64,000 bases of DNA from Pseudomonas phage HPP-Temi: sequence record PP968062.1; one strand, given 5' to 3'. A program made the position numbers and the translations under genes. The notes below the pieces were generated by a model. The model ran no database searches. It was not told where the DNA came from and worked only from the letters and a program-made list of their open reading frames with translations. Positions within the stretch are counted from its first letter, which is position 1. Each line of letters begins with the position of its first letter. Shown here one piece after another: positions 2,504 through 62,464 of this stretch.

Positions 2504-2534
2504 CATAAATGCCTCCCTTCGGGGAGGCTTTATG
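2504..2534. terminator. palindromic GC hairpin terminator of the CATAAA...TTTATG family
   Basis: Stem gcctccc/gggaggc with loop ttcg, flanked by cataaat and ctttatg. Lies between convergent gene ends 2500(+) and 2538(-). Confidence 0.6.
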
Positions 2535-2537
2535 TTG

Positions 2538-3233
2538 TCAACCCTTACTAACACCCCAGATGCGTTTACGCTGATCCAGAAGCAGGAATGCATTCTGTGT
2601 AAGGACCAGATGGAAACGACGCTTACGGAGAGAAGTAGCGATGGTTTCTACCACACCTTCAAAGTCAAGGTTGGTGTCAATAGCAGCTTGTTCGGTTTTA
2701 GCTTTACGGCGGTCAGATTCACGATAACGACACTTCCAAGAAGTAGTCGCAATCTCTGTACCACGTTTCACTTTAACCTGAGAACGATAGAACACTTCCA
2801 GTAGTTTAACCGCGAGTTGTTCAACGTCTTCAAGACGATCATCTGCATTGGATAGAGTCACACAAGAACTAGCCATGTGTTCATGTGTGTCTACGCTGTC
2901 GTTCAGGGCACGCATTGTAGGATCGAAGTCCAGTCGCTTAATGACGATGTTAATAGTGTCACCATCGCGACGGATCTCAATACAGCGAATGAAATCGAAC
3001 ATGTCGAATTCTTTTTCCAGGTTACGCATCAGTACAGCTAGTTGTTCAAGCGATTCTACGTCATCTGTCCCAGAGTGCTTAGTGAAAGCAAAAGTTAGAT
3101 CCGATAGAATTGTCTGTGGATAACTTGTGGAGATCAGAAGACGTAACAGAGATTCGCCTCGGCATTTACGACCGGGTTTACCCGTCATCTGTTCAAGTAC
3201 GGTTGTCATTTCTATTTGTCCAAATGGTTTCAT
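2538..3233 (-). CDS. hypothetical protein (231 aa)
   Basis: ORF packed between the terminator and the downstream exonuclease gene. Its ATGA overlaps the next gene. Confidence 0.45.
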   Translation of the reverse strand: MKPFGQIEMTTVLEQMTGKPGRKCRGESLLRLLISTSYPQTILSDLTFAFTKHSGTDDVESLEQLAVLMRNLEKEFDMFDFIRCIEIRRDGDTINIVIKRLDFDPTMRALNDSVDTHEHMASSCVTLSNADDRLEDVEQLAVKLLEVFYRSQVKVKRGTEIATTSWKCRYRESDRRKAKTEQAAIDTNLDFEGVVETIATSLRKRRFHLVLTQNAFLLLDQRKRIWGVSKG

Positions 3234-3661
3234 GTATAGCCATTCTTCTTAAGCCAGTCCTCACGGGTCGCTCTGGCATCGAATAGCGCATTGTGCAAAA
3301 GTTTAGACCCTTTGCCACTGAGATTGTCATCAATATCGAAGGTCAGTGGTTGAATCATAATCCATTTACCTTTCTCCCCAAGCAGGGCTTTATTAAAGTA
3401 AATGACATCGTTAGGATGGTTTACGATTATGTTCATGCCAGCGAACTGAGATACGAATTTCTCAAGGCGAGTCTGGAATTCTTCAAAGCTGATTGGATCC
3501 TTTTGAAGAATAGGAATGACGTTTGCCTTTACCCAGTCGTCTTGAATATGCTTATGTTCGAGTACCTCATAGAACTCACGGTTGCCATCCTCAGATACAA
3601 TGGCAAGTGAGATCAAACTGTCTGTAGGTACGTCAAATTCTGCATCACAGAAGAAGTTCAT
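3230..3661 (-). CDS. DEDDh-type 3'-5' exonuclease (DnaQ/oligoribonuclease-like), 143 aa
   Basis: Exo I-like motif FCDAEFD at the N-terminus and Exo III-like motif HNALFDARAT near the C-terminus. Confidence 0.6.
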   Translation of the reverse strand: MNFFCDAEFDVPTDSLISLAIVSEDGNREFYEVLEHKHIQDDWVKANVIPILQKDPISFEEFQTRLEKFVSQFAGMNIIVNHPNDVIYFNKALLGEKGKWIMIQPLTFDIDDNLSGKGSKLLHNALFDARATREDWLKKNGYT

Positions 3662-3712
3662 AGGGAGTGAGCCTTTACGATAAGGAAGTCATAAGAATAA
3701 GGGATTTCACGA

Positions 3713-3745
3713 AATAAAAGGAGCCCGAAGGCTCCAGTTATTTTG
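3713..3745. terminator. hairpin terminator
   Basis: Stem ggagcc/ggctcc with loop cgaa, between tandem minus-strand genes. A U-rich stretch (agttattttg) follows on the plus side. Confidence 0.5.
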
Positions 3746-4226: not shown

Positions 4227-4331
4227 CTTCCCCTCCTATAGGGGCTACGGTCTCTTCCACAACTCGAAAGCATATATCCTTATACTTTCATGAGATAAGG
4301 CATAAAGCCCGCCCTAAGGCGAGCTCTGTGC

Positions 4332-4694
4332 TTATTCAACGATCTGTTGCAGGAAGTCAAATTGGTAAGCCAAGAGGATTACCCAAAGTACCTTACACCC
4401 GATATGAATCCATTGGTCAGTATGGAATCCAATCTTACCCGCGCATTTCAGATAATCTGTAATACTGTGGGCAATTGTTTCAGCCGCACCTAGAACAAAA
4501 CTACCCGTGACTACGTATACCCAGCCACCATGGATTAAACCATGTGCAGGCAGAACGTAGGGCCAGTAGGTCTTACCTAGTTCAGTAGTGTGGTTCTTTG
4601 CAGCAGCCATGAAATCATTCTGTAATGCGTAATCGCAAACAGCATGACCGACGAGCAAAATGAAGAGCAGTTCTATAAGGGAGAGTATTTCCAT
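4332..4694 (-). CDS. small membrane protein (120 aa, about 3 hydrophobic segments)
   Basis: Hydrophobic stretches ILSLIELLFILLVGHAV, VYVVTGSFVLGAAETIAH and VLWVILLAYQF. Confidence 0.45.
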   Translation of the reverse strand: MEILSLIELLFILLVGHAVCDYALQNDFMAAAKNHTTELGKTYWPYVLPAHGLIHGGWVYVVTGSFVLGAAETIAHSITDYLKCAGKIGFHTDQWIHIGCKVLWVILLAYQFDFLQQIVE

Positions 4695-5243: not shown

Positions 5244-5303
5244 GATAGTGTCTCGAATGCTGGATTATAGGATTGAGAGCAAAAAAAAAAGAAAGAAGAG
5301 CAC

Positions 5304-5329
5304 GGAGTCCCCAAAGGGACTCCATTATG
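5304..5329 (-). terminator. rho-independent terminator (hairpin plus U-run) after the secreted-protein gene
   Basis: Stem ggagtccc/gggactcc with loop caaa. On the minus strand it is followed by T-run ttctttcttttttttttt (plus-strand A-run 5281-5303). Confidence 0.7.
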
Positions 5330-5332
5330 TCG

Positions 5333-6052
5333 TCATTTGATCCCATCGTAAATATCACGACGAGCTGGATTAATACCGGCAACTTGAGACTTCCGGTTAT
5401 CGATGTAACACAGGTAGTCATCACAGGTGGCAGTCTTGACGAAAGGAATCAGCTGAGCGAGTTCCAGCAGGGTCCATTCTTTACCGAGATAACTGCAACG
5501 CTCCATCTCTACGTTGCAATACACATTGTAAAGGGTCTCAGTAAAACGCAGATCAAGAGTTTCACCATCCGCCTTCTTATCGTTGTATTGGGAAGGCATC
5601 AGATCACGGATAGGGAACTCATGTTTCAGAGAACCATTACCATACTTAATAGCAGTGAACGTATTCTCAATCATGGTTAGGTAATAACCACGAGGTAGAC
5701 CCCAGTAGGTAGTACCCACATGACCACGTACAATCCCAACGAGTTGACCATAGGTATCATGACAGTATTCGTTAATGCAGATGGCTTCTACATTACCGTT
5801 AGTTGGGTAGCTATAAACCTCGGTCGGTTTAGAGCGCTTGGCGACCACTACAGTGATTTCTTCAGGCCAAGTCTTCCAGCCGCACACTCCATGGCGAGAA
5901 TCGTTGTCAAAGAAGCACGGTGCAACTTGTGGGGTAAAAGTGGAATAGAACAACGGAGTCTGTGCATAGATCAGTGGTTCTTTTATATCTTGAGCCAGTG
6001 CAGGGAAAGCAATAGCCAGTAGAGCGAGTACAGCAACCTTGATAAAGCGCAT
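5333..6052 (-). CDS. secreted/periplasmic cysteine-rich protein with N-terminal signal peptide (about 239 aa)
   Basis: Start moved to ATG at 6052 (MRFIKVAVLALLAIAFPALA-QD), preceded by AAGAGGA 7 nt upstream. At least 10 Cys in the mature part. Product class inferred from the signal peptide only. Confidence 0.55.
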   Translation of the reverse strand: MRFIKVAVLALLAIAFPALAQDIKEPLIYAQTPLFYSTFTPQVAPCFFDNDSRHGVCGWKTWPEEITVVVAKRSKPTEVYSYPTNGNVEAICINEYCHDTYGQLVGIVRGHVGTTYWGLPRGYYLTMIENTFTAIKYGNGSLKHEFPIRDLMPSQYNDKKADGETLDLRFTETLYNVYCNVEMERCSYLGKEWTLLELAQLIPFVKTATCDDYLCYIDNRKSQVAGINPARRDIYDGIK

Positions 6053-6072
6053 TTGAAATATCCTCTTAGATG

Positions 6073-6100
6073 ACATAAAGGGTTCCCGAAGGAACCCCTT
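6073..6100. terminator. hairpin terminator of the CATAAAG family
   Basis: gacataaa-gggttcc-cgaa-ggaaccc, between gene end 6112 and the next gene start. Confidence 0.5.
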
Positions 6101-6111
6101 ACGTTTACGAC

Positions 6112-7411: not shown

Positions 7412-7451
7412 TTTGTTTCCTGTATTTACACAAAAATGAATTGGAAAGAGT

Positions 7452-7469
7452 GGGGCTCCGTAGAGCCCC
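7452..7469. terminator. hairpin
   Basis: Stem ggggctc/gagcccc with loop cgta, between gene end 7476 and the tmk start. Confidence 0.4.
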
Positions 7470-7475
7470 AATCGA

Positions 7476-8659: not shown

Positions 8660-8812
8660 TTTTTACTGCCTTCTATTAAAAGGAATTAACTTGTCATTTA
8701 CGATATCATTCTCGCGAATGGATAGATTGTTAGCTGTTACATGATGATACCCTCAAGATATTAATCTCTAATGCATAACTGTGATATAGATTTCAAATTA
8801 TTTTTAATGGAA

Positions 8813-8842
8813 CATAAAGCCTCCCCGAAGGGAGGCATTTAT
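8813..8842. terminator. palindromic hairpin terminator (CATAAAG family)
   Basis: cataaa-gcctccc-cgaa-gggaggc-atttat, immediately after gene end 8844. Confidence 0.6.
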
Positions 8843-8843
8843 A

Positions 8844-9425
8844 TTAGTTACCTTCGTAGGTGCCTTCAGTGCCTTGTTCTTGGCGACGAGCCAGGCGAGC
8901 ACGAATCACTTCACGAGCAGCCTTCATGTGGAACAGAGCCTTCTCGTTTTCTTCACAGGCGAACTTACCTTCTTGGAAACCTTCGAACACGATGATCGAA
9001 GCAGTCAGCAGGTCTTCGACAGTTACGCCGTTAACGCCAACTTCCGGGATCACACCATTCTGAAGCAGGATTACCAGTTCCAGTTTATTATCACCCGGTT
9101 CAGCAGCTTTGTTGCTAGCTGCATCGAAACCAGAGATCACGATACGCTTAGGAGCACCAGACAGTTCATCAATGCCGTAAGCATCGATAGTCTTGCCACC
9201 GGAGCTACCCGATACCTGACCATCTTCCATTTGTTCAACGGAGATGTCGATAGTGGTGCTTACACCAACGCCATCGGGTTGCGATTCAGCATTAGCATTG
9301 TCTACATCCAGATTGCCTTGGTCGAGGTCTTTAACCTCGGTTTCAGATTCAACCTTAGTGACGTCTACCGGTTGGGCAACGCCGTCCTGGCTCTCTACAC
9401 CGAGAGCCCATTCCAGACCTTTCAT
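8844..9425 (-). CDS. acidic hypothetical virion-associated protein (about 193 aa)
   Basis: ATG at 9425 preceded by AAGGTGA. Confidence 0.5.
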   Translation of the reverse strand: MKGLEWALGVESQDGVAQPVDVTKVESETEVKDLDQGNLDVDNANAESQPDGVGVSTTIDISVEQMEDGQVSGSSGGKTIDAYGIDELSGAPKRIVISGFDAASNKAAEPGDNKLELVILLQNGVIPEVGVNGVTVEDLLTASIIVFEGFQEGKFACEENEKALFHMKAAREVIRARLARRQEQGTEGTYEGN

Positions 9426-11898: not shown

Positions 11899-11920
11899 TT
11901 TGATTTCCTTTTTAAACGGA

Positions 11921-11951
11921 AAATAAAGCCTCCCCGAAGGGAGGCTCCATG
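11921..11951. terminator. hairpin terminator after the giant gene
   Basis: Stem gcctccc/gggaggc with loop cgaa, then ctttattttcc on the minus strand. Confidence 0.6.
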
Positions 11952-11952
11952 A

Positions 11953-14900
11953 TTAAGTTAACGAGAGTGGCGACGGACGATTACTCGCGGGCGCCGATCT
12001 CATCAACGTGGAGGTCATACTATTATTTCCCCCACTACCGGTTTTTGCAGTCTCTTGCGTACCACTGGACTTTTGTTCGTTCAATTGTACCAGACGCTTG
12101 AGATGATCACGCATCTCAAGCAACGTCTTCAGTTGTTCAGCTTGGATGTCATCTACCTGCTGAGCCTTCTCGTTATTACGACGTATTTCGGCTTGACGTG
12201 TAGAGTTCTGTTGCTGGGCAACTTGCATAGCTGCTTCTTGTTGAGCTTGGACTACTGTGTTACCCGAATCGGCAGATGGGTTAGCGCCACTTGTAGTAGC
12301 ACCACCAACTGGCGACATCGGTGTAATACCTGGCAATACCGGAGTCTGCGCAGCAGCGCCGGTAGCGCTGTACGCTTCCTCACGAGCAACAGCATCTTTA
12401 CCAGCCTGACCGTTGTCTTCACTATTCCAGAGTTCAGCAGCAGATGCCTTAGCGTTAGCTTTGGCTTGTTCCTCTGTTGCCTCCTCAGTAGTCATGTTCT
12501 TACCAGCTTCTTGCGTGGCTACAGAGCTACCTTCTGCACCACCACGATGCTTCGCAATCTTCTCTTCGAACATCTGGTAGATTTCCCCGAGGGTACGAGG
12601 TTGGCCACCTTTCTTGTAGAAGATAGGACGGTTAGCGGATGCAGCTTCAGGGAATACCGATGCACCAATAGTGTCTTGATTACGAGTCAAGAACTTACGA
12701 GCGCCGCCAGGACCCATGAAGTGAGCAATGTACAGGTCTACGTCTGTCGGATCACGACCCAGTGCATCTTTCAGGAAGGTGTAGTTATCCTTAATGAAGC
12801 ACGCACCCATCAGGGCGTTGATACGTGGATCAAGACGTAGGCTACGAGCACCGTCGTCTGGCGGAATACCGAACTTGGAGCCATGTTTCTTCAACATTGC
12901 GTCCCAGGTATCATTGATAAACTGGAACCAGCCGGTAGCAGACGATGTCTTAGCTTTGACGGTGTAGTCGAAGTTAGACTCAAGAGATGCGAAGATGAAC
13001 AGGAGTTCTACAGGGATACCAACCATAGCTGCAACAGCTTGGAAGGTTTCGGCAGCAGCCTGACGAGACTTATTAGCTTTCGGATACGGAATCTGTTCCC
13101 ATGCACCACCGTTACCCTTCGTCAGGGTTCCGTAGGTTTTACCTGTAGCAGATACTTCACCGGCCAGACCAAGTTTGTACTTAGCACTTGCAGCAGAATC
13201 AGACACGTAGTCTATCGCTTCAGATGCTTTCGCCTTGGTGCTACCCCATGCATTACTTACGGTCTCTTTAGCAGAATCCCAAGTATTCGAAATGGATGCC
13301 ATTGCCCTCTCGGCAAAGCTACCACCTGCTGCGGCACTTTGAGTACCAGCTGCTTGGTCACCCGCAGATTGAGTTGGCGTAGACATGATGTCTTTGCTTG
13401 CATCTTTCTTGAGTTGTTCCAAGTCGGCTTCAGCCATTTTCTTGAGATCGTCTTTACTTCCTTTAACGGGGAAGAGGGAATCAACCTGCCATACACTGGC
13501 ACCATCTGTGTTAGTGGTACCCAGTACAGCATTACCTACAACAACTGCATCACTAGGCTTGAGTTTAGATTCCATGTTCGCAATGGTAGTACCTTGAGTA
13601 GTCCCGCGCATAGCACCGTAATAGGCACGTGCAACAGGCATGAAGCGACCAACGAACCAGTTGTAGTACGTTGCACGATCTTCATCATTACCCACGATAT
13701 CTTTACCAAACAGCGGAGCCGTTTCTTGCAGGATCGATTCTAGGTCACCACGGAACTCAGGAACACCTCCCTGCATGGATAGACCATTGAACACCATCGA
13801 TTCAGCATTCAACAGCGGATACACGTTGAAGAAGCTAAGTACTTCTAAACCGTAAGCACGCATCCGAATGGATTGTAATGCAGTCAGCTTAGTAGTAGCA
13901 GCTGCGGTAGCAACAATAGGAGCACCAGTAGAACCACCTAACCCAGGGAATGCTTTCTTAGCAGCAGCCAGAGGCATACTAGCTTTGGAAGGATCCATTG
14001 GACTAGGAGCGGTCTTACCAGTTGCAGTGTCAGCAGCTTTCTTAGCAGCGTCTTTAGCTTTATCAGCTACAGTCGTACCAGCGGCACCGCTTACATCCTT
14101 ACCTTCTTTCTTCTCGCCCGCTTTATAACGAACAAACAATGCTTTCCAAAGTTGATCAGCTGCCGGAATGGTATCTTCCAATTCACCTTCTTCAGAGAAC
14201 GGATCAACACGGTACTGCATCGGCGTATCACCCGACGTAGATACCTTAACAGCTTTAACCAAAGCACCTTTCAGTTCCTGAGGGAACTTATCATCGATCT
14301 CAACGAGTTTAATTTCATTCTTCTTGAGCTTAGCTAGAGCCTTAACCCAGGTCAAGAAGATCGGACGGAAACGAAGTTCCATCCAACGAGACATCCGCAT
14401 TACTTGGACGTCATTCTTAACATCGATGCCGAGGATATCTAGGATCGCTTTACCACCGACACCATTGATATTGAAATCAGGTTGTTCAGTGCGTTCGGTT
14501 ACCCGATCGAAAGCATCTTCCAGAGCTTGTACTTTTTGCTGTTGGTCGTGATCAGTGATACCGTATTGCAACATGCGAAGACGTCGGAACTCTGCCTTGT
14601 TATCGTTCATTTGACCGAAGATCGGTTTCAGAATGTAACGAGATGTCAGTTGGCCCAATGGGTTAAGACTCAGAGTAGTCAGGAGACCCGTCTGTTTAGC
14701 GTCCATCCCATCTTTGCTATAACCGTAAGCCATAGCGCCTGTACCAACCGCAGCAGCTGTACCACCAAGTAGCCAAGGAGCAGCACGTTTGGCCAGACCC
14801 ATAAGTCGACCTTTAGCACCACCCTTCATACCGCCGCCCATCAGTACGTCAAACGCACCCGAGCCTTCTTCGCCTTCAGTACCAGTAATCTTACTGAAGA

Positions 14901-23400: not shown

Positions 23401-23661
23401 GAAGCCATGACCTACCGTGGTGATGGTGGCCGTGGGCCGGACTCGATGGTTGCCCGTACACGTATCTATCACGAGTCTGATGTGGGCGTTGTATCTGAAT
23501 CTACTGTTGACTCTGGTGACGTGGGTGTAATTGCCTATCTGTCTCCTGATGCCAACTTCAACAGCATGCGTGGTACTACCCGTATGTTCGAGAAAGGCAA
23601 AGACGGTACGGCTAAGATGTTGTCTACTGGTGCACTCACTGGTGTAGCTACAACCAACGAT
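20443..23661 (+). CDS. RNA polymerase beta-like subunit, exon 1 (3' boundary approximate)
   Basis: Segment RGDGGRGPDSMVARTRIYHESDVGVVSESTVDSGDVGVIAYL aligns by eye to the conserved beta region GPGGL...[25 protein letters not shown]. The ORF would otherwise stop at TGA 23665-23667. Confidence 0.65.
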
Positions 23662-24003
23662 GATTGAGGTTATTGAATCGGAAAGTCTTTTCAGATTTGA
23701 GAAACCTTTGGTCCCAATGAATAGCGATATTCATTTGGAATCTCCCTTAATTGCTGGAACCTCCTTAGAGCTAATCTAACCACTGCGAGTCGAAAGACAA
23801 AGCCAAGGTTTGAAAATAGATTAGATTGGACAATCAGCAGCCAAGCTCCGTATAGGAGAAGGTTCAACGACTAACCGCTTATCACGGTGTACCTGCCAAG
23901 TGGTGGGGAAATAGGGAGCCTCTCAAGTAGAGGAAGATATAGTCTCCTCTTTAGGGAAACCTAAAGCAGTCGAAAGACGGAATTGATCTAACGAATCAAT
24001 TTG
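23662..24003 (+). ncRNA. group I self-splicing intron (IA-like), ORF-less, about 340 nt, inside the RNAP beta-like gene
   Basis: All four conserved core elements are in canonical order: P (aattgctggaac, about 23750), Q (aatcagcagcc, about 23832), R (ggttcaacgactaacc, about 23861) and S (aagatatagtctcc, about 23934). The GACTA/TAGTC pair forms P7. Both flanking ORFs are in frame 1. Exon 2 has no SD and no ATG. A possible P1 pairs exon CAACGAU with intron GGUUAUUG. Confidence 0.6.
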
Positions 24004-27051: not shown

Positions 27052-27090
27052 CTCCGGTATCCTTCGGGGTACCGGAGTGTGTCAACTTTC
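27052..27090 (+). terminator. rho-independent terminator
   Basis: An 11-bp stem ctccggtatcc/gggtaccggag with loop ttcg, followed by the T-rich stretch tttcctttttc. Confidence 0.7.
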
Positions 27091-28684: not shown

Positions 28685-28696
28685 AAAAAAACAAAG

Positions 28697-28730
28697 CATA
28701 AAGCCCTCTCCAAACGGAGAGGGCGATATG
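28697..28730. terminator. bidirectional hairpin terminator (CATAAAG family)
   Basis: cataaa-gccctctcc-aaac-ggagagggc-gatatg, between convergent gene ends 28684 and 28734. Confidence 0.65.
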
Positions 28731-28733
28731 TTG

Positions 28734-29045
28734 TCACGCTACGAAGCCATAAGCTTCTTCATTAACAGGTGGCCAACGTACAAGTGTATGTTTTCCGTTG
28801 ATCTGTTCTTCAGTTACATCTTGACCGTCCAGGTAGACTGATCTCCCGAACACACCTTGGGTTATAAGTTCACGAGCTTTGTTTAAAGCAAGTTTATACT
28901 TATCGACCGAATTATATGCGAGAGTATTACTCACATCATCCAGTGTTATACCTTCAGGTGTAAGGTAATATTCCCGCCCTTCATCAATTGAGAAGATCCT
29001 TATTAATCTCCGGAAGTTCTCGTTAATGAAAGGCCATTTTTTCAT
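28734..29045 (-). CDS. hypothetical protein (103 aa)
   Basis: ORF. The conserved 12-mer lies about 95 nt upstream. Confidence 0.5.
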   Translation of the reverse strand: MKKWPFINENFRRLIRIFSIDEGREYYLTPEGITLDDVSNTLAYNSVDKYKLALNKARELITQGVFGRSVYLDGQDVTEEQINGKHTLVRWPPVNEEAYGFVA

Positions 29046-29150: not shown

Positions 29151-29177
29151 TTCTCAATTAAGTTAGATTAAGACGGC

Positions 29178-29210
29178 ATATTGCCCTCCCTTCTGGGGAG
29201 GGCTTTATGT
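29178..29210. terminator. hairpin terminator (CATAAAG family)
   Basis: catatt-gccctccc-ttct-gggagggc-tttatg, after gene end 29213. Confidence 0.6.
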
Positions 29211-29212
29211 CG

Positions 29213-30337
29213 CTATTGAATAGCAGCATCCGGATAGAACGACTTGATCAGTTCTACAGGATTTTCCATCTTGTAGAAAGGAGCGGTCAGCATTGCTTCA
29301 CGATGAACCTCGCTACTAAGGATCAATGTGTTCGCATCTTCAGAAGCATAGCTTAAGAAGTACAGGTTCCATACCGGCAGACCTTGACGACGAGTAATAA
29401 ACCAATCGGGTTTAAGTTGATTCAAGATACGTACCAAGGTAGCCATCTGGTCAGCGTAATTAGGTCGCTCTTGAGCGCCAGTTGGATCAGGGATAGCTGG
29501 ACCAGTTGGGTTAGCCGGATCAGGAATCATTTTAGGGAATGGACCACCAGGAACACATTCCTCAGGGAAAACGTAGTTCTGTAGCAACTGGGCTGGGAAG
29601 TTAGGGTTCTCAGCAATCAATGCCGATACACCGCCGTGCAACATCAATCTTTCGATTGTGGCAAGGTCAGTACTAGGGCTAATGCCAGCAGAAGCTCGCT
29701 TAACAACAGAGAATCTGAAATCATCATCATAGTCATATTCATACTTGTTGTCCACCCATTTAGCGCCGAATGTTTCATCGACCAGGTCAGGAATACCCCA
29801 AGCCGTAACTTCTTCTACTATACCTTTCATCAGGGCAGCTTCTGCACCCAAATCGAATACACGTAGCAGGGAGTTATTAGTCAGGTCACCCATGAATCCG
29901 ATGATGCTATTCACACCACCGAAGTTACCATCGCGGAAGTAATAGTCCTTTTGATTAAGGACCATCTTCACGCCATCGAGCATGTCTGTAGCTTTGCGTA
30001 CGTAGCCTGTCCCTGTATCCTCGCCTGTGAGCTCTTCCATGATGGATCGCTCAACTTCCGATGCGAGGCCAACGATAGAACCACGAGAGCCTTTAAGCGC
30101 GTCCTGGATGCGGTTACGGGCCATATTCAGATCTATGCCGTTAGACATGATCTTACTACCGATACCTTTAACTACACCAAGAGACTTTTGAATCAGTTCA
30201 TCTGCACCTACACCGAACGCAGTAATCTTAGAAGCCAGTTGGTTCTTCAGATCAGCATTTTGTTCTGTATAGGCATCTACCTCTTTTACTGCGGCATCCG
30301 GCAAACCTGTAAAAGAAGGAATCGCTAGTTGTACCAT
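29213..30337 (-). CDS. hypothetical protein (374 aa)
   Basis: ORF only. No motifs recognised. Confidence 0.55.
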   Translation of the reverse strand: MVQLAIPSFTGLPDAAVKEVDAYTEQNADLKNQLASKITAFGVGADELIQKSLGVVKGIGSKIMSNGIDLNMARNRIQDALKGSRGSIVGLASEVERSIMEELTGEDTGTGYVRKATDMLDGVKMVLNQKDYYFRDGNFGGVNSIIGFMGDLTNNSLLRVFDLGAEAALMKGIVEEVTAWGIPDLVDETFGAKWVDNKYEYDYDDDFRFSVVKRASAGISPSTDLATIERLMLHGGVSALIAENPNFPAQLLQNYVFPEECVPGGPFPKMIPDPANPTGPAIPDPTGAQERPNYADQMATLVRILNQLKPDWFITRRQGLPVWNLYFLSYASEDANTLILSSEVHREAMLTAPFYKMENPVELIKSFYPDAAIQ

Positions 30338-30383: not shown

Positions 30384-30405
30384 GGGCTCCCCGTTAAGGG
30401 AGCCC
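30384..30405. terminator. hairpin
   Basis: Stem gggctccc/gggagccc with loop cgttaa, between tandem minus-strand genes. Confidence 0.45.
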
Positions 30406-32739: not shown

Positions 32740-32742
32740 CGA

Positions 32743-32776
32743 CATAAAGCCCAGCCGATTAGGGCTGGGCTTTATG
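32743..32776. terminator. bidirectional hairpin terminator (best example of the family)
   Basis: cataaa-gcccagcc-gatta-ggctgggc-tttatg is a perfect 34-nt palindrome, between convergent gene ends 32739 and 32780. Confidence 0.7.
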
Positions 32777-32779
32777 CTG

Positions 32780-34143: not shown

Positions 34144-34223
34144 GATAATTACCTCTTTTAAACAAGCCGTATCCGAGGATAAAGCTCAAATAGGTAATAT
34201 AGATCTGAAAAAAATTTTATTGA

Positions 34224-34256
34224 CATAAAGCCCTCTCCCGAAGGAGAGGGCATATG
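34224..34256. terminator. hairpin terminator (CATAAAG family)
   Basis: cataaa-gccctctcc-cgaa-ggagagggc-atatg, after gene end 34269. Confidence 0.6.
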
Positions 34257-34268
34257 CCTATTTACAAC

Positions 34269-34661: not shown

Positions 34662-34682
34662 TTTATATTCCTTTCGTTGGGT

Positions 34683-35733: not shown

Positions 35734-35749
35734 GGGTAGTCCTTGACGA

Positions 35750-36061: not shown

Positions 36062-36432
36062 TTCGCTACTCCGTTCATTTCAACCAGGATATTGCGATAG
36101 TGCATCCCGGTGATGGTGCGGAAGTTGTTGATCATGGTATCCGTACGGCTGTTATGTACCGAGGTACCTTTGCTGATGGCACGCGATACGTCCTGGAGAG
36201 CGATGACTTCCTTGAGGGGAGGAACTCCATTGGCGATCCATTGGTCCATCACAGCTTGAACTTCTTCCTGGACCTTATCACGAATACCCATCTTCTGTTC
36301 GTGCTTTTTGTAGATACGCTTGTTCTTGGTGCGATGCAGGATTTCCCAGGACATCCAGTGGGAACGTGCTGAACGTTGGATTTCAGCGATATCGAACTTC
36401 AGTGCAGCTTCCAAACGCGACATGTGTTTCAT
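36058..36432 (-). CDS. hypothetical protein (124 aa)
   Basis: ORF. The conserved 12-mer lies 36 nt upstream. Confidence 0.45.
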   Translation of the reverse strand: MKHMSRLEAALKFDIAEIQRSARSHWMSWEILHRTKNKRIYKKHEQKMGIRDKVQEEVQAVMDQWIANGVPPLKEVIALQDVSRAISKGTSVHNSRTDTMINNFRTITGMHYRNILVEMNGVAK

Positions 36433-36467: not shown

Positions 36468-36479
36468 TTTGTAATATAG
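36468..36479 (-). promoter_or_regulatory. conserved 12-mer TTTGTAATATAG, candidate promoter element
   Basis: Second copy. Lies 36 nt upstream of minus-strand start 36432. Confidence 0.4.
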
Positions 36480-36507
36480 GGTTTAAAAGGGTTTAAATGT
36501 AACTCAA

Positions 36508-36537
36508 CATAAAGCCTCCCTTCGGAGAGGCATTTAT
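36508..36537. terminator. hairpin terminator (CATAAAG family)
   Basis: cataaa-gcctccc-ttcg-gagaggc-atttat (one mismatch), after gene end 36539. Confidence 0.55.
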
Positions 36538-36538
36538 A

Positions 36539-36883
36539 TCAGCATGATGCTCTCAGTAGGTACGAAGACGTACCCACAATAGACTTCAACAAAGAACGCC
36601 AGTGTTGGTTGTGTAAGCCCTCTAGGAGCTCCACCACAACCCCATCCCGCCAATTGGCGGTAAGGACACACATTTCACCAAAAGACACCGTAAACAGCGT
36701 TTTAGACCGTTTCTCGGGGACATGTATTCGAAGTTCTCCCAAGAATAGTTTAGCTTGATTCCTGAAGATGTATTCGAACCGACTAGTAATAGCGGAAAGA
36801 TCATGTCGGTAATGTGGTAATAGGAGATAGTAGAAGTTCTCAAGGATTACTTCTAATGTCTCCACTCTTTCTTGTTCTGTCAT
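36539..36883 (-). CDS. hypothetical protein (114 aa)
   Basis: ATGA overlap with the SbcC-like gene. Confidence 0.45.
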   Translation of the reverse strand: MTEQERVETLEVILENFYYLLLPHYRHDLSAITSRFEYIFRNQAKLFLGELRIHVPEKRSKTLFTVSFGEMCVLTANWRDGVVVELLEGLHNQHWRSLLKSIVGTSSYLLRASC

Positions 36884-40250: not shown

Positions 40251-40516
40251 TGAGTGGAGTAGCCGTTTGTAATATAGATTCTGCTGGGGGTACGATCCGT
40301 GCCTCTGGTAACTCAACTGGCTTCTATCGTGGACAACCTATTGCTGTACTAGGTGATCCTGTAGATAACCATGGTCGTTCTCCTCACAGTAGTGCACGTA
40401 TGACTCAAGCATCTATTAAAGCTTTTATCAAAGGCGTACCGATTGTTCTCCAGGGAATGTCTGCTAGTTGTGGACACACTGCTACTGGGCGACCGGATGC
40501 GACATGTAATCAATGA
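40250..40516 (+). CDS. PAAR-repeat spike-tip protein (about 88 aa)
   Basis: PAAR-type motifs [11 protein letters not shown] and [15 protein letters not shown]. The ATG overlaps the TAA of the upstream gene (TAATG). Confidence 0.7.
40266..40277. promoter_or_regulatory. third copy of 12-mer TTTGTAATATAG, inside the PAAR gene 5' end
   Basis: Identical 12-mer with the shared cgtttg left flank. The orientation that works for the other two copies would here be antisense. Confidence 0.3.
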
Positions 40517-40519
40517 CAA

Positions 40520-40550
40520 CATAAAGCCCTCCCGACTGGGAGGGCTTATG
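40520..40550. terminator. bidirectional hairpin terminator (CATAAAG family)
   Basis: cataaa-gccctccc-gact-gggagggc-ttatg, between convergent ends 40516 and 40554. Confidence 0.65.
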
Positions 40551-40553
40551 CCG

Positions 40554-41738
40554 TTAAACGCCTTCAGCTTCGTAATGCTTGATGCAGTGACTAATGAAAG
40601 TCAGATACACGTTAAGCGATACAGCCAACCAGTGAGTATAGAAACCCATGGGTTCAGCGAGCTTCTTCGAAATCTCACCGATGATAGATAGAACAGCGTT
40701 GTAGGATTTACCTGCTGTTTCACCTTGTTCGGCGATCTGACGAATAGCGTCGTCCACAACTACCTTGACCGTGGCAAAGTCCCGCTGACCCGCTTCAGCC
40801 TTCTCTGCAAGAGAAAGGATGCTGGAGATCAACTGGGTGATTTCACTCAATGTGCGGACAGAAGGTACATCGATCTCACGGTCAGAACGGTCAGCTACGT
40901 TAAGCTGGAGTTCTGCGAACTGCATTGTGAACGAACGTCTTACAACATCCTCGTTCGCTACTTTACTATTACCCAGCATCTGAGTGATTACATCAGGCGG
41001 AGTATAGATGAACGCAACGTTGCCCGGTAGGACAACAGAACGATGAACACCTTTCTCGGCAGTAGTCAATTCACGCGCTTGTAGCGGTGCATGACCCGGC
41101 GGAGGAGTAAAGTCACGTTGAAGGATATTTGCAAACGTTTCAACCACTTCACCTGCTACTTCGTTAACACTGGAATCCTTAGATGCTTCCAAGATGTTCA
41201 AGAACGAACGAGAGCTATTCCGAGCAATCTTTGTAACGGATCGGGGGTAATGGTTAAGAATGTAGTTGGTCAGGTCTTTGATGTCGTTCAGGTGGTTGAG
41301 ATCCAACCCCACGAAGTTGCCATCGATAGATAGACGCTGTACACCAGCTACAGACATTTTCTGATAAGTAGTAGCCGAACCCAGTTTACCTAGACGCCGA
41401 CTAATACTTTCTTGGGTACGACGGACACGACGGATGCTACCGGTGAATTTGACGTAGAAAGAGTTAAGCAATTCCCAGATATAGCGGACAATATCACGGG
41501 TAGCTTTCGCAGCCGCGATGATACCTTCTTTAATTGCTCTCAGAGTAATCTTAGAACCTTCTTTGATATCAAAGTCAGGATCGATACTCTCAAGGGCTAC
41601 CGAGATTACCTCAGCAGTAGCCCCTGTTACTTCGTCACGTCCAACCAGCAGATCGCGGTAGCGCTCTAGGGAAGTACTCAGACGTTGGATCTTGTCCAAG
41701 TCAGCCGTTACTTCGTTCCATTGTGCTAGATAGGACAT
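40554..41738 (-). CDS. hypothetical structural-like protein (394 aa)
   Basis: ORF. Confidence 0.5.
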   Translation of the reverse strand: MSYLAQWNEVTADLDKIQRLSTSLERYRDLLVGRDEVTGATAEVISVALESIDPDFDIKEGSKITLRAIKEGIIAAAKATRDIVRYIWELLNSFYVKFTGSIRRVRRTQESISRRLGKLGSATTYQKMSVAGVQRLSIDGNFVGLDLNHLNDIKDLTNYILNHYPRSVTKIARNSSRSFLNILEASKDSSVNEVAGEVVETFANILQRDFTPPPGHAPLQARELTTAEKGVHRSVVLPGNVAFIYTPPDVITQMLGNSKVANEDVVRRSFTMQFAELQLNVADRSDREIDVPSVRTLSEITQLISSILSLAEKAEAGQRDFATVKVVVDDAIRQIAEQGETAGKSYNAVLSIIGEISKKLAEPMGFYTHWLAVSLNVYLTFISHCIKHYEAEGV

Positions 41739-44241: not shown

Positions 44242-44275
44242 GAGTGGCTTGAATTACCAAGCCACTTCTTTTAAT
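44242..44275. terminator. hairpin terminator
   Basis: Stem agtggcttg/caagccact with loop aattac, followed by tcttttaat. Confidence 0.5.
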
Positions 44276-46744: not shown

Positions 46745-46761
46745 GTGTATCCCCTAAATAA

Positions 46762-46789
46762 AAAGAGAGGGTTTCCCCTCTCTTTTATG
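46762..46789. terminator. hairpin terminator
   Basis: Perfect 10-bp stem aaagagaggg/ccctctcttt with loop tttc, then tatg. Confidence 0.6.
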
Positions 46790-46792
46790 TCG

Positions 46793-50512: not shown

Positions 50513-50923
50513 ATGAGCCTTATTAGCAGATTCTTGAGGCTGGAAGAAAACCCGTTCAAGTTGTTCTGGATGTATATCTGGAAACACTTGGATAACGGCT
50601 TCAAACGGATGTGCGTAATGGCGTCATTGCATGCCGCACTGGTGCAGTGTCGCGATCACGAATGCGAGCGGATATCTTCGCTTAATTCAGTGATGCGTCT
50701 TGTGAGGGATGAAAGCGCCTTACGCCTACCAACGTTATTTGGACCCTACGTTTGGAAAGGCATCCTCCCTATCGAGAAGGTTGATCTTGAATCTGACAAG
50801 TACTTCGAAAGGATCGCTCGAAAGACTCCCTGCTGGCTTCTTTATACAGACAAGGAAACTTTCGTAAATGAACTTAAGCAATTGGTACACCATTGCATGA
50901 AGGAACGACAGGCGACAGCTTAA
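50513..50923 (+). CDS. hypothetical protein (136 aa)
   Basis: ORF. Confidence 0.45.
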   Translation: MSLISRFLRLEENPFKLFWMYIWKHLDNGFKRMCVMASLHAALVQCRDHECERISSLNSVMRLVRDESALRLPTLFGPYVWKGILPIEKVDLESDKYFERIARKTPCWLLYTDKETFVNELKQLVHHCMKERQATA

Positions 50924-50926
50924 CGG

Positions 50927-50958
50927 CATAAAGCCCCACCTACGGGTGGGGCAATATG
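50927..50958. terminator. bidirectional hairpin terminator (CATAAAG family)
   Basis: taacggcataaa-gccccacc-tac-ggtggggc-aatatg, between convergent ends 50923 and 50991. Confidence 0.65.
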
Positions 50959-50990
50959 TTGTCTTAGGTAAAAGAATAGTGACAGCTTAA

Positions 50991-53850: not shown

Positions 53851-53863
53851 CAACATAGACGGG

Positions 53864-53879
53864 AGCTCGCGCTCCCTCT
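53864..53879. terminator. short hairpin
   Basis: Stem gggagc/gctccc with loop tcgc, then tctatg. Confidence 0.35.
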
Positions 53880-53898
53880 ATGCCAAGTAGGTATCCCA

Positions 53899-55777: not shown

Positions 55778-56535
55778 TCAAACGTATTCTGGTTCCTCTT
55801 GATGTATTACTCGACACTCGTTTGGGTGTCATGCGTACGCTTAACAAGGAGGCAGCAGAACGATTGGTTTCCACAAAGGAATATTGGCTTCGTGAAAATG
55901 ACGACTGGACTGCCTTAACAGGCGGTCTAGTTACCACGGAGCAATTCAAAGAAGCTTATGCTGATCGTGGTGGGGATAACTCCGCTGATACTATCAACGC
56001 TTCTATCCTAACAGGTATCAGTCCGTTCTTGATGCGTATCCTTGCAGAAGACCATGTAAACAGAATGGATAACATGGGTAACCCTGAAGACGAGATTGGT
56101 TTAACCATTAACGTCTGGCCGTATAAACTCCCTGGAGATGTTGTCGATGATCTAGAGACAATTATCCAAGAGATCTATGGTGAGGAAATGCCCGTCGAAG
56201 TGGTTAGTCATCCTCTAGAGGAACTTACTCCTAAATTTCTGGATGCTCTCTACTCAATGTATCTTACTTATGATTTCCATGAGTGGATGCATACGCATTA
56301 TCTGGCTCTGTCTCAAGTACAGATGCCATGCTTTAACTTTATCGGACCTAAGCTATTCGAACGTGATGTTAGTAAACTCACCGTAGAAGAGAAGAAATTC
56401 GAACTATTCAAGTTCCGTGTTGAACGTTTGATTCATATGGACTTTGAATTCATTGATGCTAAATATTTCTCTATGTTAAGGCCCGGAGAAAATGGTATCG
56501 AGTTAGAACAAGACGACATAAAAGCCCAGGGTTGA
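55774..56535 (+). CDS. hypothetical protein (253 aa)
   Basis: ORF. Its stop codon lies inside the terminator hairpin. Confidence 0.5.
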   Translation: MIKRILVPLDVLLDTRLGVMRTLNKEAAERLVSTKEYWLRENDDWTALTGGLVTTEQFKEAYADRGGDNSADTINASILTGISPFLMRILAEDHVNRMDNMGNPEDEIGLTINVWPYKLPGDVVDDLETIIQEIYGEEMPVEVVSHPLEELTPKFLDALYSMYLTYDFHEWMHTHYLALSQVQMPCFNFIGPKLFERDVSKLTVEEKKFELFKFRVERLIHMDFEFIDAKYFSMLRPGENGIELEQDDIKAQG

Positions 56536-56551
56536 TCCCTGGGCTTTATGC
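56517..56551. terminator. bidirectional hairpin terminator (CATAAAG family)
   Basis: cataaaa-gcccaggg-ttgatc-ccctgggc-tttatg, between convergent ends 56535 and 56560. Confidence 0.65.
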
Positions 56552-56559
56552 CGCTATTA

Positions 56560-59871: not shown

Positions 59872-62372
59872 TATACAACTTCCTCAAGTTCAACGCGCAT
59901 CAGACCGGATGTGTTAGATACGGAGTTAGCGGCGTCGCAGTTATACCAACTATTGCCATTCTTGACGGTGTAAGTGTTTACAGCGTCGGCATCGTCAGCT
60001 TTATAGGTGAAGTTCAGAGAGCCGCTGGCACCTTTCGACAGGTTAGAGCAACGCAACTTACCAGTCATGGTCACGGTGGTACCAATAGCACCTTCACGGT
60101 TAGGGAAAGCAGCAATAGACATGGTACGCAGAACGAAACCACCGATGGTGTATTCACCACCAGACTTCAGTGCGTTGACAGCAACACCAGCAAGGCCTTT
60201 ACCCGATACACCAGCAAAGTTGAAGATACCCTTGGCATCGTTATCATGAACGAGCAGGGTACGTGTCCATACTTTCTTGGCTGCATCACCAACCCATGCC
60301 GCAGCATCCCAATTTCCGCCAGGAGCATCCATCGAAGGTGCTTCAGCCAGAGACTGAGTAGAGGTGATGGTGATGGTGTGACGCTGAACAACAGTACCTG
60401 CATTACCACCGGAGCGCAGACGAGCAGCCGGAGTAGTGACAGTCAGTTCCGGAGCAACGTTAGCGATCTTAACGATCGTGGACGCAGTTGCGGAGCTACC
60501 GTTGGCAGCACGTTGTGCAGTGATAGTCAGGTTGTTAGTCAGGTCATTGTAATCACCTGCCAGATAGCTAACAGTTTTAGCTGCTTCTACTTGGGTCGGA
60601 TTGGTTACAGTCAGCTGACCATTTGCCGAGGTGTAAGTAGCGCTGGAAGCGTTAGTTACAGTGTTCGCTACGGTTGCATCTTCACCAGCTTTGACGGCTT
60701 GTTGGCCAGCCGGGTAAGTTACAGTACCGAAGGAGATAGTCGGCTTCAGGTTGTTCAGCTTAACGACGTTAACTTTCTCAACAGTACCAGCCACATCGGA
60801 CTTATACCAAGCAGAGAAGCTACCGGAAGCTTTCTTAACACGGATGCTGAACGGATGGTTGGCAGCGGTGTTACCACGGTCGGCAATAACCAGACCAGTA
60901 ACGTTGTGCGTCTTACCGGCAGTCAGAGTACCAGTCTTAGCAACGAATGCACCTTCATCACGGATTTCATAACCAACAACATCTTGGTCAGAAGTAAAGG
61001 TGATGGACATTACGTCACCGGCTTTCAGTTCGGTCTGTGCACCCGGATAGTTACCAGTGAAGGTAGCGGCAGTGATTACAGGAGCAGAATCCATAGTCAC
61101 GTTAGCAGCAGCCTTAGCGCCGTCTTCGTGAGTAGCTTCTACTTTAACCGGATCTGCGCCAACCGGAGCCGGCAGATTGACAGTTGCTTCACCAGTCCAC
61201 ATCGGAGCATTAGCGCCGGCGGTCAGTGCAACATCAACACCGTTTACTTTAACAACCGGACGATAGTTGGTGTGGCCAGTGATAGCAGCGACTTTTACCT
61301 TAACGTCACGAGTGGACGAGGAGCACTGTACCAGGGAGAAGCCATCAGCCGACTTAACTTTGTCGCCAACGTTGTCAGCAGCGTTTACCGGAGTGATGTC
61401 AGTGATGAATACACCACCGTTAACGCCTTTCGGTTCAGCCAGGGATTTGTTGAACTCTTCTTCAGTACCGATGAAGCCACCGTCTACAGCGGATTCATAT
61501 GCCGACTTACCATTAGCACCTTCAAGGCTTTCCAGCCATTGTTCTTCAGTGCCCACAAAGCCGCCATCTTTAGCGATCTGATAAGCGGACTTACCATCAG
61601 CGCCGTGAAGGCTTTCGAGATATTCAGCTTCGGTGCCTTGGAAACCAGCATCAACTGCCAGTTCATAAGCGGACTTGCCGTCAGCACCATCAACACCGTC
61701 ATCACCTTTGGTGCCGTCAACGCCATGTAGGGATTCCAGGTACTCAGCTTCGGTACCAGTGAAACCACCTTCTACTGCGAGAGCATAGGCAGACTTACCA
61801 TCGGTGCCAGTATCACCCTTATCGCCTTTGTCCCCTTTATCACCGGTGTCGCCTTTCTCACCTTTCAGCGAGGCAACGAACTCAGCTTCGGTACCAGTGA
61901 AACCGGTATCCAGGGCGGATTGATAAGCAGATTTACCAACGAGAGTTGCAAGGAATTCTTGTTCAGTGCCGGTGTAGCCATTATCAACAGCTACTTCATA
62001 GATGGATTTACCTACGGCACCATCTTTACCGTCATCGCCCTTGAGGGAAGCGAGGAATTCGTCTTCGGTACCTACGAAACCTTGCTGGAGAGCAAGCTGA
62101 TAAATACCTTGACCTTTCAGGCTTTCGAGCCACTGTTGTTCAGTGCCAACGAAACCATTCTTAACAGCAACCTCGTAGGCCGAGAGACCTTCGTTGTTGC
62201 GGATCTTGGAGACCATGAGACGGAAGTTCTTATAAGAACCATCGGGCTCACGACGAATAACTTCTACAAACTCTTCACCAGTGATGGTGTTAAGAGGCTG
62301 CATTCCGGAAATCATGCCCGGACTGGATTTAATGGCCATTACGTATTCCTTTGTTGGAGAGAGTCTTCGCAA
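59871..62372 (-). CDS. tail fibre protein (833 aa) with about 8 tandem 24-aa repeats and short collagen-like linkers
   Basis: Repeats SAYEVAVKNGFVGTEQQWLESLKG, SAYELAVDAGFQGTEAEYLESLHG and others, separated by GDKGDKGDKGDTG. Its TAA overlaps the ATG of the downstream fibre gene. Confidence 0.8.
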   Translation of the reverse strand: MRRLSPTKEYVMAIKSSPGMISGMQPLNTITGEEFVEVIRREPDGSYKNFRLMVSKIRNNEGLSAYEVAVKNGFVGTEQQWLESLKGQGIYQLALQQGFVGTEDEFLASLKGDDGKDGAVGKSIYEVAVDNGYTGTEQEFLATLVGKSAYQSALDTGFTGTEAEFVASLKGEKGDTGDKGDKGDKGDTGTDGKSAYALAVEGGFTGTEAEYLESLHGVDGTKGDDGVDGADGKSAYELAVDAGFQGTEAEYLESLHGADGKSAYQIAKDGGFVGTEEQWLESLEGANGKSAYESAVDGGFIGTEEEFNKSLAEPKGVNGGVFITDITPVNAADNVGDKVKSADGFSLVQCSSSTRDVKVKVAAITGHTNYRPVVKVNGVDVALTAGANAPMWTGEATVNLPAPVGADPVKVEATHEDGAKAAANVTMDSAPVITAATFTGNYPGAQTELKAGDVMSITFTSDQDVVGYEIRDEGAFVAKTGTLTAGKTHNVTGLVIADRGNTAANHPFSIRVKKASGSFSAWYKSDVAGTVEKVNVVKLNNLKPTISFGTVTYPAGQQAVKAGEDATVANTVTNASSATYTSANGQLTVTNPTQVEAAKTVSYLAGDYNDLTNNLTITAQRAANGSSATASTIVKIANVAPELTVTTPAARLRSGGNAGTVVQRHTITITSTQSLAEAPSMDAPGGNWDAAAWVGDAAKKVWTRTLLVHDNDAKGIFNFAGVSGKGLAGVAVNALKSGGEYTIGGFVLRTMSIAAFPNREGAIGTTVTMTGKLRCSNLSKGASGSLNFTYKADDADAVNTYTVKNGNSWYNCDAANSVSNTSGLMRVELEEVV

Positions 62373-62432
62373 CTACTCGTGCACGTCTTAAAAGGAAAAT
62401 AAGACTCATAGAGTAGTGTATTATTTCAGCAA

Positions 62433-62464
62433 CATAAAGGAGTCCCTAATGGGACTCCAGTATG
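62433..62464. terminator. hairpin terminator (CATAAAG family)
   Basis: cataaa-ggagtccc-taat-gggactcc-agtatg. It has the same stem as the terminator at 5304. Confidence 0.55.

Follow-up and report, generated by a model that had tools for sequence, protein, structure and literature searches.

The GC-rich hairpins described here lie between the genes of a 64,000-nt stretch of DNA (the window) from Pseudomonas phage HPP-Temi (sequence record PP968062.1). A megablast search with positions 28000-36000 retrieved seven records of P. aeruginosa jumbo phages, at about 82.6% identity and with 94-95% of the query covered. These records represent six distinct phages, namely PS119XW (listed under both a GenBank and a RefSeq accession), PA1C, phiHQ, HHBS36_1, BRkr, and phiLBG22; weaker matches were obtained with 201phi2-1 and phiPA3. 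PS119XW is classified as Pawinskivirus, and the window DNA is about 83% identical to it and syntenic with it over 60 genes. Matching the translated annotated genes of PS119XW to the open reading frames (ORFs) of the window yielded a syntenic gene model of 64 genes, reversed in orientation relative to PS119XW and with protein identities mostly of 75-99%. Two ORFs, 18788-20440 and 20443-25152, match the PHROGs families phrog_2986 and phrog_3148, which are beta-subunit families of jumbo-phage RNA polymerases; a Pfam search of the same two ORFs gave no match. Judged from these family matches and the relationship to PS119XW, the window is that of a jumbo phage of the phiKZ type that carries multisubunit RNA polymerases of its own. 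Under this gene model, the window contains 22 intergenic GC hairpins, which, on the strength of their sequence features and the comparison with phiKZ, are very probably factor-independent (intrinsic) transcription terminators of the phiKZ type.

The existence of a hairpin family, proposed in a first-pass annotation of the window, was borne out, the hairpin and flank counts lying well above those in shuffled sequences. A scan for perfect GC-rich stems of at least 6 bp with loops of 3-8 nt, controlled by 100 dinucleotide shuffles, found 43 such hairpins in the window, compared with 21.4 ± 4.8 in the shuffles, and 20 with a 4-nt loop, compared with 4.3 ± 1.9. With each strand scored separately, 23 hairpins had TAT[G/T] no more than 3 nt beyond the stem, versus 1.26 ± 1.1 (shuffle maximum 5), so that the motif count is far above chance. 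The flanking words are likewise enriched: TTATGYYGT occurs 11 times (2.3 ± 1.6 in shuffles), with 10 of the 11 occurrences adjoining hairpins, and CATAAAG 19 times (7.7 ± 2.7). A (T)TTAT[G/T] or TATG flank is present on at least one strand of 18 of the 22 intergenic hairpins. Ten have the full frame, with CATA on the left and TATG on the right, slightly fewer than the at least 12 first counted in a palindromic frame, and eight have a one-sided element or a TTATT variant. The exact palindrome CATAAAG-N(14-30)-CTTTATG is found only once (32743-32776; 0 in 100 shuffles), and the other four sites given as examples, at 28697-28730, 40520-40550, 50927-50958, and 56517-56551, do hold near-palindromes. 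The assertion that almost every intergenic gap contains a hairpin was too sweeping, as the actual figure is 22 of 37 gaps, the minimum gap length being 30 nt (or 24 nt in the case of the 56536 gap). All 20 copies for which folding was tested had energies of -15 to -27 kcal/mol, with z-scores of -4 to -8. The stem arms take the form GCC[Y/C]... / ...GGC in 11 of the 18 flanked copies; the remaining ones (GGAGTCCC, GGGTTCC, GGAGCC, GGGAGC, CCCAGCC, and AGAGAGGG at 46768) are likewise GC stems of 6-11 bp. The sequence TAACGGCATAAA, first noted as a shared element, consists of the TAA stop codon of the upstream gene plus CGGCATAAA (2498-2509, 50921-50932).

As had been stated at the outset, the hairpins sit between convergent or tandem genes. 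All six convergent gaps contain one hairpin each, with the element on both strands, and none of the five divergent gaps of the gene model contains any. The other hairpins are in tandem gaps, directly 3' of the stop codon of the upstream gene. Occupation of all convergent and no divergent gaps, together with the position after stop codons, is the placement expected of terminators. At GC hairpins inside genes of the window, the flank was found in 0 of 22 cases. The same contrast was seen when the window was combined with samples of about 41 kb each from phiPA3, PA7, and Noxifer (the four-phage set): the flank was present at 19/23 and 20/23 convergent hairpins on the two strands and at 27/43 tandem hairpins on the sense strand, but at only 4/110 and 3/110 intragenic hairpins on the two strands.

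A hairpin is present at the orthologous position in PS119XW for all 22 sites. The loops have changed between the window and PS119XW (TTCTG to CAAAA, TACG to ATTA, TCGC to ATTA, and CAAA to CTTG), and the stems show compensatory changes at 40526 (C>A with G>T), 44243 (T>C with A>G), and 46765 (A>G with T>C). Base pairs were counted in a gapless, loop-anchored alignment of 34 tetraloop copies from the four-phage set; MAFFT alignments, which misaligned the left stem arms and put gaps into sequences of equal length, were set aside, and a covariance model was abandoned. Stem positions 1-7 were paired in 94-100% of the copies, with three to five pair types each, compared with about 47% for shuffled partners. 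In addition, for all 14 wobble-type mismatches in the stems of tandem gaps (13 cases in the four phages plus window 36514), it is the upstream-gene strand that has the G·U, the opposite strand having C·A. On the sense or reference strand, the loop reads UUCG in 17 of the 34 tetraloop copies and CGAA in 3. The supposed GNRA-like loops thus need another description: cgaa is UUCG as read from the opposite strand, and it is the strand of the upstream gene that reads UUCG. The G·U wobbles and the UUCG bias on the upstream-gene strand imply that the structure acts in RNA, and we conclude from these sequence signatures that the hairpin functions as RNA transcribed from that strand.

These signatures also bear on a role at the level of DNA, in which the palindromes would be binding sites of a dimeric protein, cruciforms involved in replication, recombination, or packaging, or mobile repeats similar to repetitive extragenic palindromic (REP) elements. 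The near-perfect DNA palindromes of up to 34 bp would suit such an element, as would the SbcC-like protein encoded according to the annotation of the syntenic PS119XW region, and at 32750 a double change from CATAAAG/CTTTATG to CATAGAG/CTCTATG in PS119XW preserves the palindrome. However, the stem sequences vary from copy to copy while pairing is kept, the loops vary freely, and all five divergent gaps lack the element. A cruciform or a duplex protein site would be indifferent to the side that carries the G·U and to the strand of the loop, so that both signatures point to RNA; the uniform placement of the wobbles, relevant only in RNA, led us to reject the cruciform or protein site. Mobility of the kind seen for REP elements or miniature inverted-repeat transposable elements was rejected as well, since the stems differ between copies and all 22 sites are at fixed orthologous positions in PS119XW. 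Altogether, we consider an element acting in DNA extremely improbable.

The palindromic frame around the stems was compared with the terminators of phiKZ, the transcript ends of which were mapped by ONT-cappable-seq, yielding the consensus 5'-BCCYCCCCHWWDGGGRRGGBYTTATKYYGT-3' from 61 regions (Putzeys et al., 2024; PMC10914365). The profile of the 3' flank across 52 copies of the four-phage set (T37, T37, T40, A30, T34, G25/T12, T32/C13, C20/T20, G21, T25) reads T, T, T, A, T, G/T, Y, Y, G, T and equals the published YTTATKYYGT, and the left flank is its complement. Pairing between the left and right flanks was no better than with shuffled partners at any of 12 positions (all p > 0.07), and many of the palindromes are imperfect at two inner positions, with TTTATG on one strand and AATATG, GATATG, or AGTATG on the other. 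Compensatory-looking cases in the arms, at 32750 (relative to PS119XW) and 53861, are anecdotes only. Since the arms do not covary, the palindrome represents the same 3' element on both strands and not a longer stem under selection. Selection of the arms for pairing was rejected, as they cannot be distinguished from the partner-shuffled controls. From its sequence, the CATAAAG/CTTTATG frame is best read as a 3' element present on both strands for bidirectional termination.

In the mechanism that we propose, a GC stem of 6-11 bp would form in the RNA 0-10 nt past the stop codon, typically with a C-rich 5' arm, a G-rich 3' arm, and often the very stable UUCG loop. The transcript would then be released within the weak, AU-rich segment (Y)UUUAU[G/U], about 7-9 nt past the stem. 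With the 3' element on both strands, a single hairpin could stop transcription from either side, which would be required between converging genes and elsewhere would block antisense read-through. The terminator reading, already put forward in the first-pass annotation, is supported by the placement, the compensatory changes in PS119XW, the match to the phiKZ motif, and the 3' ends of phiKZ. The latter were located in the -60 to +40 sequences of the phiKZ tables (supplement of bioRxiv 10.1101/2023.10.13.562163), with a precision of about ± 2 nt because the length of the extracted text varies by 1-3 nt. In 14 of the 15 motif terminators checked, the 3' end is at most about 3 nt from the base after TTAT, and for T012/T013 and T018/T019 the 3' ends lie on opposite strands of one hairpin. 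By analogy, we infer that the HPP-Temi copies behave in the same way, with both phage RNA polymerases.

Several points weigh against this interpretation. Four of the 22 hairpins (7451, 27052, 30384, and 44244) have no TTAT[G/T] flank. In the tandem gaps of the four-phage set, TAT[G/T] is found on the antisense strand in 20/43 cases, next to the 27/43 on the sense strand, and TATG on the sense and antisense strands in 18/43 and 16/43 cases, a symmetry that exceeds the need of a one-way terminator. The U-tract is short and interrupted (UUUAUG), and the weaker strands read AAUAUG, GAUAUG, or AGUAUG; a plain U-tract model leaves the retention of TATG over a U run unexplained. Finally, 3'-end mapping alone cannot distinguish termination from trimming back to a protective hairpin.

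The retention of TATG recalls the late promoters of phiKZ, and the first-pass annotation had speculated on these grounds that termination may be coupled to re-initiation. The promoter invoked agrees with the literature: TATG is essential, with the G at +1 (PMC4666361, PMC12809450), and a pocket in the beta lobe of gp123 binds the non-template TATG in the phiKZ promoter complex (PMC12809450). In such a terminator-promoter module, the TATG next to the hairpin would be a late promoter at which the non-virion RNA polymerase restarts on the very G where the transcript ends. The promoter has the same four bases as the terminator tail, in a phage of the same polymerase family. The distribution of TATG in the window would also fit. 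Coding sense strands contain 205 copies, compared with 304 ± 14 after permutation of codons within genes (z = -7.1; for other words, z was -4.8 for TTATG, +2.8 for TATC, and 0 for TATT), and the density per kb is 3.5 for the sense and 1.2 for the antisense strands of coding DNA and reaches 6.3 per strand between genes, where more than half of the copies flank terminator hairpins. As far as the sequence goes, the depletion in genes would be expected if stray words of either kind, late promoter or terminator tail, were selected against. Moreover, in the gaps at 6070-6107 and 53851-53886 the TATG of the putative terminator, 22 nt and 17 nt upstream of the start codon, respectively, is the sole TATG before the next gene; in both cases, read-through would be the simpler alternative to re-initiation.

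The mapped starts of phiKZ speak against re-initiation. Among the 149 published start-site rows, there was no start whose 50-nt upstream sequence ends in a stem plus YTTATG, that is, none on a terminator TATG. About 14 starts do lie within 50 nt of a motif terminator, but these are 6-45 nt beyond it, at separate sites. The late starts among them use a second TATG, as in P049 (...CCCTTATGCTATG, then T) and P075 (...GGCTTTATAATGCTATG, then T) and also in P006, P016, P054, P078, P139, and P143; P054 and P139 start about 20 nt further on from the terminator. The early starts after terminators (P001, P017, P028, and P099) are at ..GATCTATATTAC.., and the best-studied late promoter, P119L (..TTGCTATGTAGACAG..), has no upstream hairpin. 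In the window, a promoter in any of the six convergent gaps would give only antisense RNA into the facing gene, some copies have TTATT and not TATG, and four tandem gaps contain a separate early-type CTATATTAC box (one of them a variant) 21-28 nt after the terminator TATG. Re-initiation at the hairpin is thus disfavored, not disproved, and we regard it as very improbable.

The CTATATTAC boxes are at 29142-29150, 34194-34202, and 36471-36479, and the variant CTATATCAC is at 8781-8789, all on the - strand; they are preceded by AT-rich sequence and have small - strand genes downstream. They match the consensus ..TTTAAGATCTATATTAC.. of the early promoters of phiKZ, which are used by the virion polymerase, in the published start-site table. 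A fourth exact copy of CTATATTAC, at 40269-40277 (-), lies within a gene. The divergent gaps have a hairpin-free TATG 26-47 nt upstream of start codons, as illustrated by TTTATGTTTAG ahead of the tail fibre gene and CTTATGTAG ahead of an internal head protein gene, and by sequence these sites look like ordinary late promoters. One divergent gap, 32152-32226, contains the back-to-back palindrome TTTTATGGCATATT, with TATG on both the + and the - strand, 47 nt upstream of one diverging start codon and 31 nt upstream of the other; it may represent divergent late promoters that share one site. Matches to the sigma-70 consensus were rarer than in shuffles in the three 20-kb segments of positions 1-60000 (20 vs. 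27.0, 12 vs. 29.0, and 19 vs. 25.6), a scarcity consistent with a phage that does not use the host polymerase.

The hairpin and flank are abundant in the samples from phiPA3 (Miltoncavirus), PA7 (Phikzvirus), and Noxifer. In EL and SPN3US, for each of which a single region of about 41 kb was searched, only three and four instances were found, near the chance level of the window, and the hairpins are mostly longer and have other tails. In the EL sample, five of the six longest-stem intergenic hairpins (examples at 17875-17904, 21972-22001, and 27127-27158 in coordinates of the EL sample) have 13-bp stems, three of which are followed by TATA[A/G/C] and neither by TTTATG nor by a U run; the TATA[A/G/C] tail may be a different, clade-specific terminator tail.

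The phylogenetic range of the flank is one of the arguments for assigning TATG a more specific part in termination, namely that of a pause and release signal: the beta-lobe pocket of the non-virion polymerase would bind TATG as the enzyme elongates and arrest it with the 3' end of the RNA 7-9 nt past the hairpin, thereby aiding release. The flank is common to the samples of Phikzvirus, Pawinskivirus, Miltoncavirus, and Noxifervirus and unenriched in those of EL and SPN3US. The 3' ends of phiKZ fall between TTAT and G, in the same register to the active site as in the promoter complex (PMC12809450). TATG, and not the U run, is kept on both strands, as the weaker sides with AATATG, GATATG, or AGTATG illustrate, and it is avoided inside genes. 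The consensus pause of multisubunit polymerases, Y(-1)G(+1), is likewise in keeping with UAU followed by G. On the other hand, TTAT is followed by G or T and in some cases by A, so that the G is not obligatory. The same motif also ends early operons read by the virion polymerase, as in phiKZ T011, T015, and T057 just before early promoters, and the terminators of 201phi2-1 work in a host reporter without any phage polymerase (PMC11512511). A polymerase-specific signal of this kind therefore seems unlikely. There is an equally small chance that one word, TATG, marks both the start and the pause and release of the non-virion polymerase, with the hairpin deciding which; if true, this dual role would help to explain why TATG alone is insufficient for promoter activity and why it is purged from coding strands.

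The preferred reading, termination of the phiKZ type, can be followed through the individual sites, beginning with the bidirectional ones between converging genes. The putative terminator at 2501..2538, between the homologues of PS119XW gp229 (+) and gp228 (-), has the sequence TAA-CGGCATAAAT-GCCTCCC-TTCG-GGGAGGC-TTTATGTTG-TCA, with -23.7 kcal/mol on the + and -18.9 kcal/mol on the - strand (z about -6), and is kept in PS119XW. The one at 28693..28734, between the head protease gene (+) and the gp207 homologue (-), has the 3' flanks GATATG on + and TTTATG on - (-25.4 and -22.8 kcal/mol; z about -7.5). The perfect palindrome CATAAAG-CCCAGCC-GATTAG-GGCTGGG-CTTTATG at 32740..32779 likewise serves both strands of converging genes in our prediction (-27.4 kcal/mol, z -8.3), and the site reads CATAGAG...CTCTATG in PS119XW. 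At 40516..40555, between the gp191 homologue (+) and an internal head protein gene (-), the sequence is TGA-CAACATAAA-GCCCTCCC-GACT-GGGAGGGC-TTATGCCG-TTA, with the compensatory pair C>A / G>T in PS119XW. The hairpin at 50923..50962 separates the gp180 homologue (+) from the tail fibre gene (-); its loop reads UACG on +, and its 3' flanks are AATATGTTGT on + and TTTATGCCGT on - (-26.7 kcal/mol). That at 56514..56554, also assigned to both strands, extends into the 3' end of the gp172 homologue (+) and has on its other side the converging gene of the gp171 homologue (-), which is annotated as a hydrolase in PS119XW (-23.6 kcal/mol).

Most of the predicted terminators in tandem gaps are on the - strand. 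Three of them have the UUCG loop: GGAGCC-UUCG-GGCUCC-UUUUAUUUCG at 3710..3745 (-15.1 kcal/mol, z -5.5), GGGUUCC-UUCG-GGAACCC-UUUAUGUC at 6070..6107 (-21.8 kcal/mol, with compensatory changes in PS119XW), and GCCUCCC-UUCG-GGGAGGC-UUUAUGUU at 8809..8846 (-19.9 kcal/mol), the last with the early-promoter-like CTATATCAC 23 nt downstream. A fourth, AGCCUCCC-UUCG-GGGAGGCU-UUAUUUUCCGU, follows the gene for a protein of 2256 aa (11918..11955; -20.2 kcal/mol). The stem at 4296..4335 has a G·U on the sense (-) strand only (-21.2 kcal/mol), with the 3' flank TTTATGCC and without CATA 5' on the sense strand, whereas the hairpin in the tandem (-) gap at 5294..5333 has a plain U-rich sense tail, GUGCUCUUCUUUCUUUUUUUUUU, and carries the element, TTATGTCGT, on the antisense (+) strand. 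A palindromic putative terminator in a tandem (-) gap at 29173..29213 is flanked by AATATGCCGT on the sense and TTTATGTCGC on the antisense strand, with CTATATTAC 26 nt downstream. At 34220..34261 (-26.4 kcal/mol), UUCG is on the - strand, the 3' flanks are TTTATGTC (sense) and ATATGCC (antisense), and CTATATTAC follows after 21 nt. The stem at 36504..36541 (-16.7 kcal/mol) contains a wobble pair, G·U in the sense (-) strand but mismatched as C·A in +, and is followed by the 3' flank TTTATGTTG and, 28 nt downstream, CTATATTAC. The site at 46755..46792 (-), which follows a virion structural gene, has the sense sequence AAAAGAGAGGG-GAAA-CCCUCUCUUUU-UAUUUA, with TTTTATGTCGT in antisense (-17.3 kcal/mol), and shows the compensatory A>G / T>C in PS119XW. 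For the site at 62429..62468 (-), which follows the tail protein gene, the sense sequence is GGAGUCCC-AUUA-GGGACUCC-UUUAUGUUG, with AGTATGCC in antisense (-21.4 kcal/mol). On the + strand, the putative terminator of the tandem gap at 53851..53886 is CAACATAGAC-GGGAGC-UCGC-GCUCCC-UCUAUGCC (-18.7 kcal/mol). The four GC hairpins without a TTAT[G/T] flank also have counterparts in PS119XW: that at 7451..7470 (-), with a UACG loop on the - strand, is kept; the long hairpin at 27052..27077 (+), whose loop is UUCG and whose stem contains a G·U wobble, both as read on the sense (+) strand, is identical; that at 30384..30405 (-), with a U run about 30 nt downstream, is kept with changes; and that at 44244..44265 (-) shows the compensatory T>C / A>G.

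Two further features of the window were observed in the course of the analysis. The gene for a virion RNA polymerase beta-like subunit is interrupted by a group I intron at 23681-23966 (+), in the gap 23668-24000 (Rfam RF00028; 70.5 bits, E = 7e-16, full-length model), which was the sole match in an Rfam scan of the window. The flanking ORFs, 20443-23667 and 24001-25152, match positions 2-1050 and 1051-1423 of phrog_3148, and the PS119XW orthologue (gp212, 1453 aa) is uninterrupted. At 36058-36432 (-), in a tandem block of - strand genes, lies a 124-aa ORF without a counterpart among the PS119XW proteins encoded in the syntenic region; it possibly represents an insertion specific to this lineage, between the homologues of gp195 and gp194.

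The hairpin family itself is already described in phiKZ and 201phi2-1; new are its occurrence in an uncharacterized relative and some small analytical points. Conceptually, these are the interpretation of the frame as the same 3' element on both strands and the strand-specific RNA signatures in the hairpins, and a TATG, not a U run, as the conserved core of the terminator tail bears on how these unusual phage polymerases terminate. For annotation, the motif can serve to locate predicted operon ends in an uncharacterized relative of phiKZ, and the CTATATTAC boxes next to it to locate predicted early promoters. In phiKZ, which holds more than 70% of all intrinsic terminators predicted across the six phages studied, six bidirectional terminator regions lie between converging genes (PMC10914365). 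The window copies share with the phiKZ motif the GCCYCCC / GGGRGGC arms, the short loops, and the 3' YTTATKYYGT, as well as the position after genes and the bidirectional use between converging genes, and PA7, a phage of the phiKZ genus, has the same CATAA...TTATG frame as the window. They differ in that HPP-Temi belongs to a different genus-level lineage, closest to Pawinskivirus PS119XW, with a GC content of 47% versus 37%, and in that the stem lengths are more variable in the window. Because of this variation, the fixed-length phiKZ consensus is a poor detector in the window, where it found only four copies (at most three mismatches; 0 expected in shuffles).

For 201phi2-1, 132 terminators were mapped, 15 of them bidirectional (Poppeliers et al., 2024; PMC11512511). 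Its motif A (n = 59) resembles the phiKZ motif, and the combination of A with motif B lengthens the hairpin (PMC11512511). Motif B is probably the CRRCATAAA / TTTATGYYG frame of the window. The longer stem was proposed in that paper to be a device against antitermination, whereas the arms in the window do not covary and extension of the stem is apparently not selected. Eight of the terminators were tested in a reporter in a Pseudomonas host, where four were stronger than lambda T0 and two equal to it (PMC11512511). The termination assays in the papers cited here used such host reporter constructs only and no purified phage polymerases.

A scan for canonical terminators (a GC hairpin followed by a U-rich tract with at least five T in eight positions) included most of the motif copies among its sites, namely those at 2511, 3720, 5304, 6080, 8819, 11927, 28703, 29183, 34230, 36514, 40524, 44243, 50933, and 53861. 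However, its overall yield did not clearly exceed that of shuffles in every segment, and flanks of the weaker strand, AATATG for instance, were accepted only because of T's further downstream. Like the bidirectional terminators of bacteria, the window hairpins combine a GC stem with an A-rich 5' and a U-rich 3' flank, an arrangement that ends transcripts both ways. However, the flank in the window is the short word (T)TTATG and not a run of seven to eight U, and the weaker strand loses the U run and keeps TATG.

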